Shown: positions 984 to 18,588 of the stretch, piece by piece | How the letters are laid out: each line of letters begins with the position of its first letter | Numbering within the stretch: the stretch's first letter is position 1 | IMG/VR virus record: IMGVR_UViG_3300031521_000017 | Reading direction: 5' to 3' (one strand) | From: a virus | Length of the DNA: 64,000 bases | The notes under the pieces: model-generated | Seen by the model: only the letters and a program-made list of their open reading frames with translations | Databases searched by the model: none | What the model was told of the DNA's origin: nothing | Position numbers and translations under genes: made by a program

Positions 984-1059
984 GTGCTTGTCATCCAATT
1001 GGCAGGATCCCAGACTTTTAATCTGGTCATCAGGGTTCAAGTCCCTGCGGGCGCACCAA
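984..1059 (+). tRNA. tRNA-Lys (anticodon TTT)
   Basis: Anticodon stem-loop CCAGA-CTTTTAA-TCTGG. T-arm CAGGG-TTCAAGT-CCCTG. Acceptor GTGCTTG/CGGGCGC (with G-U pairs), discriminator A, CCA encoded. Confidence 0.55.
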
Positions 1060-1065
1060 ATATCT

Positions 1066-1142
1066 GGCTCTGTAGCTCAGTACGGTAGAGCGTAGGATTG
1101 AAGATCCTAGCGTCCTTGGTTCAATTCCAAGTGGAGCCACCA
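1066..1142 (+). tRNA. tRNA-Phe (anticodon GAA)
   Basis: GGCTCTG-TAGCTCAGTACGGTAGAGC; anticodon loop TTGAAGA; T-arm CTTGG-TTCAATT-CCAAG; acceptor TGGAGCC, discriminator A, CCA. Confidence 0.8.
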
Positions 1143-1168
1143 TTAAACATTAGAAGAGGAGAATAAAG

Positions 1169-1372
1169 ATGATGGAACAGTTTGGTCAGGCACCTTGGCT
1201 TATTCAAGCAATTTTCATTGGAAGGGTTTCTGATTTTAATTATTCTCCTCGTAACAGGTATGACCTCAAAGTAACTTGCAAGGACAATTTCCTTTATGTT
1301 ACTTGTAAAGGTCATAAAGATTGTGCTTATAGTTTAAAGGGTTTTCTAAGAAATTGGGAAGTCCAGCTTTAA
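1169..1372 (+). CDS. hypothetical small protein (67 aa)
   Basis: ORF with RBS AGAGGAGAATAAAG 5' of the ATG. Sits between two tRNAs. Confidence 0.5.
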   Translation: MMEQFGQAPWLIQAIFIGRVSDFNYSPRNRYDLKVTCKDNFLYVTCKGHKDCAYSLKGFLRNWEVQL

Positions 1373-1487
1373 AATATCGCGCGAACAAAGTATCGGAATG
1401 CAAGAATAGGGCGAGCCGGTTTGGCTCATAATGTGCGGATGCTGCCCGTCCACCGACGCGATAACTAATGCCTTTGTAACTCAGTAT

Positions 1488-1562
1488 GGGTTGTTGATGT
1501 AATTGAAAACATAGGAGACTCTTAATCTCTCATTCTGGGTTTGAGTCCCAGGCGACCCACCA
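1488..1562 (+). tRNA. tRNA-Lys (anticodon CTT)
   Basis: Acceptor GGGTTGT/GCGACCC (G-U pairs); D-arm ATGT-AATTGAAA-ACAT; anticodon stem-loop GGAGA-CTCTTAA-TCTCT; T-arm CTGGG-TTTGAGT-CCCAG; discriminator A, CCA. 75 nt. Confidence 0.55.
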
Positions 1563-1637
1563 TTAAATTTCAGGTTCAATTTTAATAAAAATTTGGACAA
1601 GGTTCAATTATTTATAGTATAAAACTTCCAAGTATTA

Positions 1638-2264
1638 TTGGAAGGAGTGATACAAATGAGTGTTAATTCAGAAAGAGTCATGAAAGCAAGAGTGAAAAGA
1701 AAAACTCAAATTGTTGAAGTGATGGGTGGAGAATGTGCCTTATGTGGATATTCTAAAACTCAGAATGCATTAGAGATGCATCATATTTTACCAGAAGAAA
1801 AAGAACTTGCCTTTGGTAAAATGTCTTCATTCCCAAATTGGGAAATTTTAAAGAAAGAATTAAAGAAATGTATTATACTTTGTGCCAATTGTCATAGAGA
1901 GGTTCATGATATTTCTTTAAACGTACCTGACTTAATATCTTCTTACAATGAAGAAAAAGCAACTAAATTTCAAGAAGAATTGAAACCAACTCTATATTTA
2001 TGTTCTGTTTGTCAAAGCCCTTTAATTTGGGGGAAAACCAAAACAGGAATGTGTGAAGTCTGTGCTCATAAAGCGACTAGATTAGTAGAAAGACCTTCTA
2101 GGATTGAATTGAAATATCTTATAAGAAATATTCCTTTTACTAAAATAGGAGAAAAATATCATGTTTCTGACAACGCTATTAGAAAATGGTGTAAAACAGA
2201 AAACTTACCGAACAAATCAAAAGAAATAAAAATATATACAGATAAAGAATGGGAATTATTGTAA
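1638..2264 (+). CDS. HNH homing endonuclease
   Basis: Paired CxxC zinc motifs (CALCGY...CANCHREVH) plus an HNH core. The C-terminal region (RPSRIELKYLIRNIPFTKIGEKYHVSDNAIRKWC) is paralogous to the C-terminus of the 10231-10957 protein. Confidence 0.8.
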   Translation: MEGVIQMSVNSERVMKARVKRKTQIVEVMGGECALCGYSKTQNALEMHHILPEEKELAFGKMSSFPNWEILKKELKKCIILCANCHREVHDISLNVPDLISSYNEEKATKFQEELKPTLYLCSVCQSPLIWGKTKTGMCEVCAHKATRLVERPSRIELKYLIRNIPFTKIGEKYHVSDNAIRKWCKTENLPNKSKEIKIYTDKEWELL

Positions 2265-2332
2265 TTTTGTTATACACTTCGGAACGTCCTCTCCCTCCTA
2301 GCTAGGTAATTGGCGCCGAAGTATTTTGCCAC

Positions 2333-2362
2333 TGTAGCTCTTAACGGCTAGAGCAGTAAATT
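2333..2362 (+). pseudogene. tRNA 5'-half fragment (acceptor + D-arm only)
   Basis: GCCACTG-TA-GCTC-TTAACGGCTA-GAGC-A has a canonical acceptor and D-arm, but no downstream T-arm or matching 3' acceptor. Lies between two HNH genes. Confidence 0.4.
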
Positions 2363-2429
2363 ATTTTACTGTTTTGGTCAAAATGAGCTAAACATATAGC
2401 TTTCCTTTTCATATAATAGTGAGAGGAGA

Positions 2430-16727: not shown

Positions 16728-16730
16728 TAT

Positions 16731-16805
16731 GGTCTATTAGTGTACTGGCGCGCACGACACCCTGTCAAGGTGTAAGAACGAATTCAATTTTCGTATAGAC
16801 CGCCA
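16731..16805 (+). tRNA. tRNA-Asp (anticodon GTC)
   Basis: Acceptor GGTCTAT/ATAGACC (perfect); anticodon stem-loop ACACC-CTGTCAA-GGTGT; T-arm ACGAA-TTCAATT-TTCGT; discriminator G, CCA. Confidence 0.7.
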
Positions 16806-16809
16806 TAAT

Positions 16810-17330
16810 AATAATTGGGAAGGTAGCAGACACACACTGAGTAATTGGGGTGTATATGGTAATAGGGGCTACTACGGAATCACAAGTGTTGTGGGGTGAT
16901 TTCAAAATCCTGCGGGAATGCAGGTTGGTGGAGGCGTGGTACTAGTACCACCTCAATTTTGGGCTTAAGATGTAGATAGAAGGATGCGGGATGCAATCAC
17001 TATCGGTCCACCGCTGTGGGAACATATGACATGATAAGAAGGGGGCGCAGTCCGAATTGTTCGGAACTCCGGTTCTTATCCTGTGGCTGGCAGAAAATAT
17101 CCAGTCTGAGACTCAGCCTTTTGTCATCTGTTAGGAGCATGAGTCGAAAAAATGATAACGGGTGAAACAAGTGACTTGGATGTTAGATGTGACCGATTGA
17201 AACATCGACAAAATTAGGTCTGATAGGCGACTAAATATTTGGCCGGAGTGGAGCTTACATATAAGCAGGCCTGGTAGCTGCAACCACCAAAGCCGCAAGG
17301 CAGCGCCTATTAAATTTTGGGACAAAGTTG
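16810..17330 (+). ncRNA. ~0.5-kb ORF-free structured region downstream of the TROVE gene and tRNA-Val/Asp (candidate Y-RNA/vault-RNA-like or other ncRNA)
   Basis: No credible ORF. Perfect palindromic hairpins are present (GTGGTACTAGTACCAC; TCCGAATTGTTCGGA). Co-transcribed from the 16589 promoter. Confidence 0.35.
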
Positions 17331-17393
17331 GATAAACTATCCCAAAGAAACTACATGTATAGTAGAAGAAATAAAGGAAATAGGAGGTCTACT

Positions 17394-18020
17394 ATGCAAT
17401 CAACAATCTATCAAGTTATTAATTTAGTCAACAACAAACAGTATATTGGACAAACTACTCTCACTCCTGATCAACGATTTGCTCGACATATTGTTGATGC
17501 AAATAAAGGTTCTAATTTTCATTTTCACATGGCAATTAGAAAATATGGAGAAGAGAATTTTACCATTAAAGAAATTGAAACAATCGAAGGAGACCAAGAA
17601 ACAGTAGATATAGCTGAAATATATTGGATTAATAAACACAATACTTATCATAATGGATATAATTCTACATTAGGAGGCAAAGGGTTTTGTATTTATGATT
17701 CGGAAGTAATCAAGATTGCCCTTGAAGCAGGAGAAAAAGTAAAAGAAATTACAAAAAAACTTGGGTGTTGCGAAGAAACTGTGCGGAAGATAGCTAGAAA
17801 GAATGGGATTACTGTTGATAGAGTCTACAAAGAAGAAGTTCAACAGTATGATAAAGACAATAATTATATTCAATCTTTTGAATCTCAGGCGGCTGCGGCA
17901 AGATATTTAGTAGAACAAGGAGAAGCAAAAGGTCAAGCTTCAAGTGCGACTTCTAAAATAAATGAAGTTGTGCGAGGGAAAAGATCAACGGCTTATGGAT
18001 ATAAATGGAAAAAGAAATGA
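17394..18020 (+). CDS. GIY-YIG homing endonuclease
   Basis: The N-terminal IYQVINLVNNKQYIGQT…R…H is the GIY-YIG motif. Start ATG 17394 after RBS GGAAATAGGAGGTCTACT. Confidence 0.75.
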   Translation: MQSTIYQVINLVNNKQYIGQTTLTPDQRFARHIVDANKGSNFHFHMAIRKYGEENFTIKEIETIEGDQETVDIAEIYWINKHNTYHNGYNSTLGGKGFCIYDSEVIKIALEAGEKVKEITKKLGCCEETVRKIARKNGITVDRVYKEEVQQYDKDNNYIQSFESQAAAARYLVEQGEAKGQASSATSKINEVVRGKRSTAYGYKWKKK

Positions 18021-18035
18021 TAAGGACTAAATAAG

Positions 18036-18110
18036 GAAGAAGATAGCAGCCACCGGGCCGGTGTTAGGAAAGAATTTCGCTACCTTAGCTATCTTCTTCT
18101 TTATCTAGTT
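18036..18110 (+). terminator. long inverted repeat / terminator after GIY-YIG gene
   Basis: AAGAAGATAGC…GCTATCTTCTT is an 11-bp perfect stem with a ~30-nt loop, followed by a T-rich stretch. Confidence 0.4.
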
Positions 18111-18119
18111 CTTATCAAT

Positions 18120-18195
18120 GGGCTTATAACTCAATGAATAGAGACTTGGACTACGAATCCAAAAGTTGTAGGTTTGAATCCTACTGGGCCCACCA
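18120..18195 (+). tRNA. tRNA-Arg (anticodon ACG)
   Basis: Acceptor GGGCTTA/TGGGCCC (G-U pairs); anticodon stem-loop TTGGA-CTACGAA-TCCAA; T-arm GTAGG-TTTGAAT-CCTAC; discriminator A, CCA. Confidence 0.7.
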
Positions 18196-18511
18196 AATGC
18201 GTTAAAAGACCAATAGAGTCTTTTTGATAAAGAGATAAAAGAAGAAAGAATGAGTCGATTTACTATGGCAATTCTTGCGGTAGTGACGCTTTTTGTTTTG
18301 ATTCTAGGAAGTTGAAACAGCGAAGCAGCAACTTGATGCCGCGAAGTATCAGGCAGAGGCTAACTTGAAGCGAGCTGATTCTCTTGCTAGTAAGGGTGGT
18401 ATGGCAGCAGTTCTTGATGATGCTGTTAAGTCAGGTAAGGTTACTTTTTGGGTAGTTAATGGTCAGGATTTAAACATCCCGACTCCAACACCTGGTAAGT
18501 AATATTAATAT

Positions 18512-18588
18512 GCGTCTATAGCCCAACTGGAAAGAGCGAGAGGCTTCTATCCTCTAGGTTGTGGGTTCGAATCCTACTAGGCGCTCCA
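18512..18588 (+). tRNA. tRNA-Arg (anticodon TCT)
   Basis: Acceptor GCGTCTA/TAGGCGC; anticodon stem-loop AGAGG-CTTCTAT-CCTCT; T-arm GTGGG-TTCGAAT-CCTAC; discriminator T, CCA. Confidence 0.65.

Follow-up and report, generated by a model that had tools for sequence, protein, structure and literature searches.

Organization of the island

Positions 20 to 18833 of the viral DNA analyzed here (IMG/VR virus record IMGVR_UViG_3300031521_000017; the whole stretch of 64,000 nucleotides (nt) is termed the window, and all island coordinates are positions within it) hold a dense succession of RNA genes, which quite probably represents an RNA island of a phage. It consists of a transfer-messenger RNA (tmRNA), a set of transfer RNA (tRNA) genes, the structured RNAs ROOL and raiA, and eight genes resembling Y RNAs that accompany a gene for Ro60, and it appears to have been remodelled by endonucleases. 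A preliminary description of the same DNA had portrayed the region as a tRNA array with endonucleases and nothing further, a picture that leaves out the tmRNA, ROOL, raiA, Ro60 and a protein consisting of a RapZ C-terminal domain.

Outside the island, the window encodes both subunits of topoisomerase II, a ligase, a DnaB helicase, a primase, RecJ, a Dda-like helicase, an anaerobic NrdD, tail proteins, an endolysin and a Pol III alpha-type polymerase that is ~40% identical to the polymerases of SPbeta-like and Enterococcus phages. On this single contig the island is flanked upstream by unannotated phage-like open reading frames (ORFs) and downstream by replication, tail and lysis genes. The 6 kilobases (kb) preceding the window contain ORFs and no tRNA, and the island therefore begins at the tmRNA. 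The same DNA is found at 100% identity in an 85-kb ENA metagenome contig, as well as in shorter contigs of other samples. Among GenBank phages no close relative was found, and a megablast search with the island returned only a 42-nt tRNA-Ser match. Judged by its gene content and assemblies, the DNA comes from an uncultivated phage whose genome measures 85 kb or more. Its host is probably an anaerobic Gram-positive bacterium, since the promoters carry an extended -10 element, NrdD is encoded, and the relationships of the polymerase point in this direction, as does what is known of where raiA and ROOL occur.

Homologues of the Ro60 protein at 74, 73, 67, 63 and 55% identity lead to the related contigs L085, L086, L089, L091/L092 and L087. 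The relatives with a Ro60 that is 63-74% identical share the tRNA order and the Y RNA clusters, and ROOL is present in all four that were scanned. In L086, 32 tRNAs are arranged within 14.9 kb in nearly the order of the window, and the island is linked to the same LemA-family protein (of a PHROG "virion structural protein" family). The islands of relatives also hold genes for peptidyl-tRNA hydrolase (PTH2) or peptide deformylase (L085 4281-4625, L086 5611-5955, L089 1732-2184), which are absent from the window.

tRNA genes and decoding capacity

With default settings, ARAGORN reports 28 tRNA genes, which all lie on the + strand within 984-18588, and the rest of the window (~45 kb) yields none; 24 of the 28 reach the gathering score of the Rfam tRNA model. 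Intron mode adds none, and no group I intron reaches its Rfam gathering score in the window. The preliminary description, which had counted about 28 tRNAs in this interval, is thus borne out, as the automated count is not far lower. Its statement that all of them encode CCA applies to 27 of the 28, the exception being a poorly folding CAU element at 12302-12374. It gave five Leu tRNAs where there are four (UAG, AAG, CAA and UAA) and two CAU tRNAs where there are three, and it overlooked a tRNA-Thr(UGU). Relaxed ARAGORN settings add two candidates, namely a tRNA-Tyr(GUA) at 7155-7241 with CCA, which corresponds to the Tyr of that description, and at 8291-8362 a weak tRNA-Trp(CCA) that ends in GCCA; the other calls made under these settings are minus-strand or overlapping and were set aside as noise.

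Unless stated otherwise, the genes that follow lie on the + strand, were called by ARAGORN and encode CCA. The array opens with tRNA-Lys(UUU) (984-1058), tRNA-Phe(GAA) (1066-1142) and tRNA-Lys(CUU) (1488-1562), followed by tRNA-Thr(UGU) (3000-3075), which is overlapped by the 3′ end of an HNH endonuclease gene (2430-3014), and by tRNA-Ser(GCU) (3704-3795) and tRNA-Leu(UAG) (3811-3896). After two protein genes it resumes with tRNA-Asn(GUU) (5055-5139), tRNA-Pro(UGG) (5224-5301), tRNA-Met(CAU) (5389-5462), tRNA-Glu(CUC) (5680-5754) and tRNA-Leu(AAG) (5939-6024), and, beyond a first cluster of Y RNA-like genes, with tRNA-Gln(CUG) (6532-6607), tRNA-Ile(GAU) (6618-6694) and tRNA-His(GUG) (6898-6975). 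Next in order are the tRNA-Tyr(GUA) at 7155-7241, tRNA-Leu(CAA) (7396-7480), tRNA-Ser(UGA) (7731-7823), the Trp candidate at 8291-8362, tRNA-Cys(GCA) (8438-8521), tRNA-Leu(UAA) (8602-8686), a tRNA(CAU) (9219-9296), tRNA-Gln(UUG) (9876-9950) and a tRNA-Glu(UUC) with the atypical T-loop GAUCGUA (10081-10156), the last of these within an inserted cassette. The remainder comprises an initiator-like tRNA(CAU) with a degenerate acceptor stem (12302-12379; called by ARAGORN as 12302-12374), tRNA-Ala(UGC) (12988-13066), tRNA-Gly(UCC) (14678-14760), tRNA-Val(UAC) (16652-16727), tRNA-Asp(GUC) (16731-16805), tRNA-Arg(ACG) (18120-18195), which is displaced relative to L086, and tRNA-Arg(UCU) (18512-18588), the last tRNA of the island. 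The tRNA-Ala gene begins 2 nt after raiA, carries the identity element G3-U70, and has orthologues in L085, L086, L089 and L091.

Several members of the set depart from canonical form. The tRNA-Tyr, found by ARAGORN at 85% thresholds and matching the Rfam model weakly (27 bits), has A73 and a G7-A66 mismatch, and is 80% identical to the tRNA-Tyr of L086. The Trp candidate has G73, folds poorly and may be degenerate, and its location between tRNA-Ser(UGA) and tRNA-Cys is the slot of a good tRNA-Trp in L085, L086 and L089. The tRNA(CAU) at 9219-9296 is probably an AUA-reading Ile tRNA, because relatives have a tRNA-Ile(UAU) in the same slot. Both tRNA-Asn(GUU) (85 nt) and tRNA-Gly(UCC) (83 nt) contain a variable stem-loop that gives them a class II-like appearance. 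These arms covary among relatives (Asn in L085 1218-1301 and L086 2267-2349; Gly in L086 9110-9192) and are therefore maintained. The 84-nt tRNA-Cys has a long unpaired variable loop that was seen in the window only. An 8-nt anticodon loop, CUCAAAAA, distinguishes tRNA-Leu(CAA) and recurs in independent assemblies, whereas the loop comprises 7 nt in the orthologues of L085, L086 and L089; expanded loops of this kind occur in frameshift-suppressor tRNAs. In the CAU tRNA at 12302-12379, three G-C pairs close the anticodon stem, as in initiators. A CAU tRNA also follows ROOL in L085 (7724-7796), L086 (8788-8859) and L089 (9779-9853), where it has a proper acceptor stem and CCA, and these post-ROOL tRNAs are initiator-like in that they combine the three closing G-C pairs with a weak 1-72 pair.

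With respect to decoding, codon usage was tallied over 25 long ORFs (11,923 codons). Cognate tRNAs are provided for the four most used Leu codons and for the preferred Arg (AGA, with CGU/CGA read via ACG) and Gly (GGA) codons, a U34 tRNA is available for every four-codon box, and isoacceptor pairs are present for Lys, Glu, Gln, Arg and Leu. Under standard G34/U34/I34 wobble, only CGG (5% of Arg codons) is uncovered, and Trp hinges on the weak candidate. The set is a near-complete minimal decoding set, as opposed to a supplement for a few rare codons, and this composition is compatible both with matching of phage codon usage and with independence from host tRNAs. The earlier attribution of the array to a phage is upheld by the phage gene set on the same contig and by an array that is intact and suited to phage codon usage.

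tmRNA, ROOL, raiA and region X

The left edge of the island is formed by the tmRNA (20-391, + strand), which was identified by ARAGORN and by Rfam RF00023 (67.8 bits versus a gathering score of 47). Its predicted tag, GNAKTVAI*, ends in AI in place of the usual AA, and such a tag may escape the host proteases that degrade tagged proteins.

A full-length ROOL RNA occupies 11430-12061 on the + strand (Rfam RF03087, 321.5 bits versus a gathering score of 99.1, model positions 1-574). Its closing helix extends to 11425-12069, and a 22-base-pair inverted repeat accompanies the match. ROOL lies at the same position in L085, L086, L089 and L091, that is, in four of the four relatives scanned. ROOL has been described in phages and prophages, often near tRNA islands (PMC5737381, PMC12286853), and other members of the family form homo-oligomeric nanocages as observed by cryo-electron microscopy (PMC12286853).

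Immediately upstream of tRNA-Ala, positions 12746-12985 (+ strand) match the raiA motif RNA over model positions 1-209 (Rfam RF03072, 115.8 bits versus a gathering score of 101.3). A second phage raiA was found in L091 (1796-2016, 116.7 bits), and the order of ROOL, CAU tRNA, raiA and tRNA-Ala is the same in both. Among the nucleotides that are conserved in at least 97% of raiA sequences, the 3′ segment GCGAGUGUGGGGU-AAA-ACCAGGU and most junctions are kept, and CUAUGG stands in place of the consensus GUCUGUGG in both phage copies. The two also share an extra hairpin, GGGA-N5-GUCCC, and differ from one another by compensatory changes in P1 and internal helices. The extra hairpin, the altered bases common to both and the compensatory changes are signs of a divergent subtype that is maintained.

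In Bacillota and Actinomycetota, known raiA is a single-copy chromosomal gene that is usually flanked by comFC and raiA (PMC10861870). No gene for ComFC or the RaiA protein was identified among the scanned ORFs of the window, a literature search found no description of a phage copy of the RNA, and BLASTN of the sequence against GenBank phages returned nothing. A generic raiA pattern run over IMG/VR gave one genuine raiA, which stands at the extreme end of its contig and may belong to flanking host DNA. Two patterns for phage-type raiA matched neither JGI metagenome contigs nor the genomes that represent 185,579 species.

Between the initiator-like tRNA and raiA lie 367 nt (12379-12745, + strand), termed here region X, for which the source-contig annotation has no called gene. 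This segment has a folding z-score of -4.27 relative to shuffled sequence and aligns with L085 7797-8244, and it may be a new structured RNA.

Ro60 and the Y RNA-like genes

The gene at 15056-16525 (+ strand) encodes a Ro60/Rsr orthologue in which a TROVE domain (Pfam, E value 7e-23) is followed by a von Willebrand factor A (vWA) domain of the vWA_Ro60 type. Comparison with PDB entries gave Ro60 of the Thermus phage phiLo (9KOP, E value 3e-25), in addition to 2NVO, 1YVP and 9NEN. Upstream of it lies a gene for another VWA-domain protein (13970-14698, + strand; Pfam PF00092, phrog_7371).

The 64 kb contain eight copies of a 24-nt motif, GURGUGAR-N6-RGYUACUUC, each of them on the + strand and within the island (6043, 6260, 6405, 13082, 13242, 13746, 14779 and 14941). 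Each copy is paired with a 3′ strand of the form ...UAUC...AUUCYC and with a complementary outer stem. The eight resulting Y RNA-like genes, here a to h and all on the + strand, differ in what the stem module encloses. In gene a (6038-6237; 5′ motif at 6043, 3′ motif at 6219, outer stem AGGCT/AGCCT) it closes a non-tRNA-like insert of ~140 nt. Genes b (6255-6385) and g (14774-14924) are of the YrlA type, with a T-arm (the orphan T-arms at 6300 and 14829, respectively), a closed acceptor hairpin and a D-arm. Gene b in particular matches the tRNA-like core of the Rfam YrlA model (6293-6358, model 24-84, 41.4 bits, E value 7e-8; the gathering score is 69), and its minimum-energy fold has the expected architecture. 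Gene e (13155-13295) is framed by a tRNA, in that the acceptor strands GGGGAAU/AUUCCCC, a D-arm, a T-arm (orphan 13268) and ACCA are all present, and the Y stem module forms a GCAA-capped hairpin in the variable region. The remaining genes, c (6400-6466, 67 nt), d (13077-13143), f (13741-13827, divergent) and h (14936-15018, 38 nt upstream of Ro60), are minimal units of 67-87 nt; like YrlB, these four and gene a lack a tRNA-like domain. Genes d to h precede Ro60 on its own strand by 38-1980 nt, which is within the ~4-kb criterion.

Further evidence supports the module as a conserved RNA. In IMG/VR, the 5′ motif was found in 71 stretches, 26 of which also encode a Ro60 homologue, and in these Ro60-linked stretches its usual place is 70-430 nt 5′ of the Ro60 gene, in the same orientation. 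An alignment of 22 minimal units (64-72 nt) drawn from Ro60-linked IMG/VR contigs and the window yielded an RNAalifold consensus with an outer stem containing a bulged U, two conserved pairs, a conserved asymmetric internal loop and an inner stem, and compensatory changes are present in 13 of its 16 pairs. The covariation score of 0.777 compares with 0.217 +/- 0.024 for shuffled alignments (none of 500 reached the observed value) and with at most 0.223 when the pairing partners were slid. A covariance model built from this alignment, R1, scores the training sequences c and d at 52.6 and 58.9 bits, and detects outside its training set the two other minimal copies of the window (f, 32.8 bits, E value 4.5e-7; h, 44.6 bits, E value 1.6e-10; both E values are at or below 5e-7). 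In the IMG/VR loci it gives 79 matches, most often as tandem groups of two to four, and in five of five relatives it detects tandem copies upstream of Ro60. Genes a, b and g have large inserts that R1 does not bridge; their 5′ and 3′ motifs served to close them manually, with minimum-energy folds as additional support for a and b.

In terms of Ro recognition, published work gives the binding motif as GNCGAAN0-1G with a YUAY element after it (PMC4201824), and the Y RNAs of phage phiLo were identified from their CGAA motif (PMC12135203). The window family has GGUGAAG or AGUGAGG and then UUAC, which is the same layout with U for C and with YUAY kept. None of 16 Ro60-linked IMG/VR loci contains a YrlA above the gathering score. 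We read the eight modules as Y RNAs of a variant type that falls below Rfam YrlA detection at this score, and the position of the genes and the layout of the motif suggest that the module would bind the phage Ro60.

Relatives add another arrangement. After tRNA-Ala, L086 (8983-9100) and L091 (2150-2260) have elements with a D-arm, an anticodon arm (CAU or GAU) and a T-arm in which the Y stem replaces the acceptor stem; ARAGORN labels these chimeras tRNA-Met and tRNA-Ile. Further afield, Ro60 and tandem Y-like RNAs adjoin arrays of 7-25 tRNAs in the unrelated large phage contigs L022, L048, L018, L032 and L039, and in L039 they also adjoin a tmRNA. The link of Ro60 and Y RNAs with tRNA islands is therefore recurrent. 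No comparable island surrounds the nearest public Ro60 matches that were examined first (LR745206 and one IMG/VR contig).

Orphan tRNA pieces and homing endonucleases

A scan for T-arms outside annotated tRNAs gave six, at 3422, 6300, 7214, 10962, 13268 and 14829, all on the + strand and in the island. The preliminary description had recognized at least five tRNA half-molecules or pseudo-tRNAs here, and orphan T-arms do exist at 3422, 6300, 10962, 13268 and 14829, along with the degenerate element at 12302-12374. What such pieces are is another matter. Those at 6300, 13268 and 14829 are not decay products but the tRNA-like domains of the Y RNA-like genes that accompany Ro60, and the T-arm at 7214 is part of tRNA-Tyr, so that one supposed fragment or uncertain call turns out to be a complete tRNA. 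Two orphans remain. The first (3422-3449, + strand; T-arm, 3′ acceptor strand and UCCA) has no 5′ acceptor partner within 1.4 kb, lies in the slot of tRNA-Gly(GCC) in L086, and is probably a remnant. The second (10962-10989, + strand; T-arm, 3′ acceptor strand and ACCA) can be traced in more detail. Window positions 10951-11225 align with L086 7487-7767, a match that starts inside the tRNA-Glu(UUC) of L086 (7449-7523) and continues through a syntenic promoter and a 76-amino-acid ORF, whereas window positions 9951-10950, which hold a spacer, the tRNA-Glu with the odd T-loop and an HNH ORF, have no counterpart in L086. Orphan 10962-10989 is therefore the stranded 3′ half of an ancestral tRNA-Glu(UUC). 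This arrangement fits intronless homing, in which the endonuclease would have carried a variant copy of its own target.

Split or intron-containing tRNAs were considered for the orphans at 3422 and 10962 and rejected, as there are no 5′ acceptor partners, intron mode gave nothing and no group I intron reached the Rfam gathering score. Recent copying of intact tRNAs was likewise set aside as a source of the orphans, since a self-BLAST of the island gave only a 22-nt match between tRNA-Tyr and tRNA-Ser(UGA).

The reported interspersion of HNH and GIY-YIG genes is confirmed by PHROG and Pfam matches, which identify three HNH genes and one GIY-YIG gene, all on the + strand. The HNH genes are located at 1638-2264 (PHROG HNH families, E value 2e-22; weak Pfam HNH; no endonuclease at this site in L086), at 2430-3014 (PHROG HNH families, E value 7e-19) and at 10079-10957 (PHROG HNH family, E value 4e-37; weak Pfam HNH_3); the true start of the last probably lies downstream of the cassette-borne tRNA-Glu. 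The GIY-YIG/NUMOD1 homing endonuclease gene (17328-18020, with the gene-caller start at 17394; Pfam GIY-YIG, E value 1e-9; PHROG, E value 8e-26) is absent from the syntenic position in L086, L091 and L092. Like segment 9951-10950, it has no counterpart at the syntenic L086/L091 sites, which amounts to a presence/absence polymorphism. It adjoins tRNA-Arg(ACG), a gene that L086 has close to the 5′ edge of its island (529-604), and in L085 and L089 endonuclease genes occupy other sites. With the split tRNA-Glu, the displaced tRNA-Arg(ACG) and these differing sites, the earlier proposal of endonuclease-driven shuffling gains ground, though not from the three fragments that are Y RNA domains. Other HNH and GIY-YIG genes, at 22643-23422 and 29835-30737, flank the topoisomerase II genes outside the island, and invasion by endonucleases is therefore not confined to the tRNA island.

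Transcription layout and other protein genes

On the + strand, seven promoters match the sigma-70 pattern (TTGACA, 17 nt, TG-n-TATAAT) perfectly or almost so, at 405, 4840, 8538, 10993, 11370, 16589 and 18840. That at 405-433 matches 12 of 12 hexamer positions and belongs to repeat family D3/D5, and that at 4840-4868 likewise matches 12 of 12, with an extended -10. Those at 8538-8566, 10993-11021 (syntenic with a promoter of L086) and 16589-16617 were identified as consensus promoters by motif match. The promoter directly 5′ of ROOL (11370-11398) matches 11 of 12 positions and has an extended -10; after it come ROOL, the initiator-like tRNA, region X, raiA and tRNA-Ala, with no further consensus promoter or strong terminator between them. 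A strong intrinsic terminator with a 17-base-pair stem and T run (18794-18833, + strand) closes the island after the last tRNA. From this layout, the island looks like about six polycistronic units in which tRNAs, other RNAs and small ORFs are mixed. Several spacers are rich in hairpins (2265-2429, 5755-5938 and 13828-13969; folding z-scores of about -4 to -5), and could be processing sites or additional small RNAs.

Four other protein genes, all on the + strand, are interspersed in the array. These encode a DUF5662 protein (3925-4407; Pfam, E value 6e-38), a SLOG/YAcAr-domain protein (4407-4862; Pfam PF10686), which also occurs in the islands of L085, L086 and L089, a stand-alone RapZ C-terminal, RNA-binding domain (7861-8286; Pfam PF22740, E value 3e-16; PDB 5O5S, E value 9e-11) and a hexapeptide-repeat transferase (8713-9228; Pfam PF00132). 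The RapZ C-terminal domain protein is kept in the islands of L085 and L086; RapZ itself is an RNase E adaptor. Downstream of the island, the ORF at 20642-21436 belongs to a PHROG "nucleotidyltransferase" family and was considered as a CCA-adding enzyme, but has no Pfam or PDB match, and no such claim is made.

Alternative explanations

Given the four endonuclease genes in the island, the demonstrable splitting off of the tRNA-Glu 3′ half at 10962-10989, and the resemblance of orphan 3422-3449 and the degenerate tRNA at 12302 to products of decay, one could suppose that the region is an array with homing endonucleases only, and that every partial tRNA is a pseudogene or half-molecule left by endonuclease breakage. 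We consider this improbable. The T-arms at 6300, 13268 and 14829 are enclosed by a covarying stem module that is present in eight copies here and upstream of Ro60 in dozens of phages, the element at 6300 matches the YrlA tRNA-like core, and the same elements lie at the same positions in relatives, which is unexpected of random breakage; moreover, breakage ignores the tmRNA, ROOL, raiA and Ro60. A different objection would accept the eight modules as genuine but regard them as processing or regulatory signals (RNase III or RNase E sites, or attenuators) rather than as Ro60 ligands. They do lie between tRNAs and ORFs, where such signals are expected, in an island whose spacers are hairpin-rich in general; the canonical GNCGAA motif is missing (PMC4201824), and three of the eight are ~9 kb from Ro60. 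Nonetheless, the association with Ro60 genes is strong and directional across unrelated phage contigs, and the architecture is that of Y RNAs, with a bulged closing stem, a conserved asymmetric internal loop and, in some copies, tRNA-like domains in the YrlA order of T, acceptor and D. In addition, GGUGAAG is one base from GNCGAAG, and the downstream YUAY is present (PMC4201824). Taken together, these features leave little room for an explanation by processing signals. There is next to none for an origin of the island in bacterial DNA, whether as a host tRNA operon or as a misassembled chimera. Although tmRNA and raiA are normally chromosomal bacterial genes (PMC10861870), the island sits between phage-like ORFs and replication, tail and lysis genes on one contig, the identical sequence was assembled independently from several samples, four divergent relatives have the same island (with the same LemA-family protein linked to it in L086), and the phage-type raiA does not occur in any of the genomes chosen to represent 185,579 species.

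A further question concerns the purpose of the tRNA set, which might mainly replace tRNAs lost to host anticodon nucleases or to phage-induced shut-off instead of correcting a codon mismatch. This is a serious possibility, albeit one that falls somewhat short of even odds in our estimation. The set is nearly complete and not restricted to rare codons, it includes the isoacceptor pairs for Lys, Glu, Gln, Arg and Leu, it is co-located with a tmRNA and a Ro60/Y RNA surveillance system, and relatives add the peptidyl-tRNA hydrolase and peptide deformylase genes. On the other hand, no gene for a tRNA ligase or for repair was recognized within the island, and the two roles are not mutually exclusive.

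Several observations weigh against reading the region as an RNA island of the kind proposed here. The Trp-like and initiator-like tRNAs, the Leu tRNA with the 8-nt loop, and the Asn, Gly and Cys tRNAs with long variable arms may be nonfunctional. Derivation of orphan 3422 from tRNA-Gly(GCC) is suggested by its position only. The raiA match exceeds its gathering score by only ~14 bits and several highly conserved positions are altered, and nhmmer found no raiA in the relatives L085, L086, L087 and L089. Finally, as regards the Y RNAs, genes a to c lie ~9 kb upstream of Ro60 and thus outside the 4-kb rule of the literature, no copy in the window reaches the YrlA gathering score, and the module has GUGAR where YrlA and other Y RNAs have GNCGAA (PMC4201824, PMC12135203).

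Proposed function and implications

On the reading of the region as an RNA island, six consensus sigma-70 promoters, which carry extended -10 elements, would give rise to long transcripts of the + strand, from which host RNase P, RNase Z and other RNases would excise the products. These would include the tmRNA and 29-30 CCA-encoding tRNAs that use U34, G34 and I34 wobble and are fitted to the A/T-rich codon usage of the phage. A tRNA set of its own would keep phage translation independent of the supply, damage or shut-off of host tRNAs. ROOL, the initiator-like tRNA, region X, raiA and tRNA-Ala would be co-transcribed from one promoter. On the eight Y RNAs, the presumed docking site for Ro60 is the conserved bulged stem, in which the 5′ strand GURGUGAR-N6-RGYUACUUCA pairs with the 3′ strand ...UUCYC. 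The free-standing HNH and GIY-YIG genes would be selfish insertions that remodelled the array, and in the clearest case a cassette of an HNH gene with its own tRNA-Glu would have taken the place of the 5′ half of the resident gene and left its 3′ half stranded.

Phage tRNA islands, ROOL adjacent to them, and phage Ro60 with Y RNAs are already known. A phage-borne raiA and the range of tRNA/Y RNA chimeras appear to be new. The occurrence of raiA beside ROOL and tRNAs in at least two divergent phages would tie this RNA to translation or tRNA biology, and suggests that it can serve a phage in trans. In many uncultivated phages, the Y-like module and model R1 mark Y genes that stand in tandem 5′ of Ro60 and escape the Rfam YrlA model at its gathering score. 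The chimeras and the split tRNA-Glu offer concrete cases of the remodelling and reuse of tRNA arrays, and argue that "tRNA fragments" of phages should not be assigned pseudogene status by default.

A more ambitious proposal is that the island is a co-transcribed RNA toolkit in which raiA, ROOL, the initiator-like tRNA, region X and several Ro60-bound Y RNAs act jointly on host translation or RNA surveillance. We regard this as doubtful. Were it true, the phage setting would offer raiA and ROOL a first hint of their function, an activity in trans aimed at tRNAs or ribosomes, and the four topologies of tRNA/Y RNA chimera would show Y RNAs arising from tRNA genes by recombination in phage tRNA arrays.

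Comparison with known systems

The tRNA clusters of large phages such as T4, T5, mycobacteriophages and huge phages resemble the island in having dozens of tRNAs on one strand of a nonessential-looking region, with small ORFs and free-standing homing endonucleases interspersed and a bias toward phage codon usage. The island differs from them in its near-full decoding set, which covers 19-20 amino acids and leaves CGG alone uncovered, in CCA being nearly always encoded, in its class II-like Asn and Gly tRNAs and 8-nt-loop Leu tRNA, and in belonging to a phage with no close GenBank relative. Intronless homing by free-standing endonucleases occurs in phage tRNA regions, as exemplified by T4 SegB. 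The likeness here lies in HNH and GIY-YIG genes that are placed between tRNA genes, vary among relatives and have apparently moved flanking tRNAs along with them; the case for the island comes from genome comparison.

With respect to ROOL, the full-length match and the setting in a phage tRNA island are as in known examples, whereas the initiator-like tRNA, raiA, Y RNAs and Ro60 share its promoter-to-terminator interval here. The raiA copy agrees with the known RNA in its whole-model score above gathering, its 3′ segment and most of its junctions, and its helices that covary between the two phage copies, and differs in being carried by a phage and in lying between the initiator-like tRNA with region X and tRNA-Ala, as opposed to between comFC and raiA. 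The Y RNA-like genes share with YrlA/YrlB (RF02553) and with Yrl1/Yrl2 of phage phiLo a Ro60 gene on the same strand, a location that is mostly just upstream of it, multiple copies per locus, and a stem of 5′ and 3′ strands with a conserved internal loop followed by YUAY, in addition to domains composed, in some copies, of a T-arm, an acceptor-like hairpin and a D-arm. They are set apart by G(R)UGAR in place of GNCGAA, by an arrangement of eight copies in two clusters, and by two extra topologies, the tRNA-framed form with an internal Y hairpin in the window and the form in L086 and L091 in which the Y stem serves as the acceptor.

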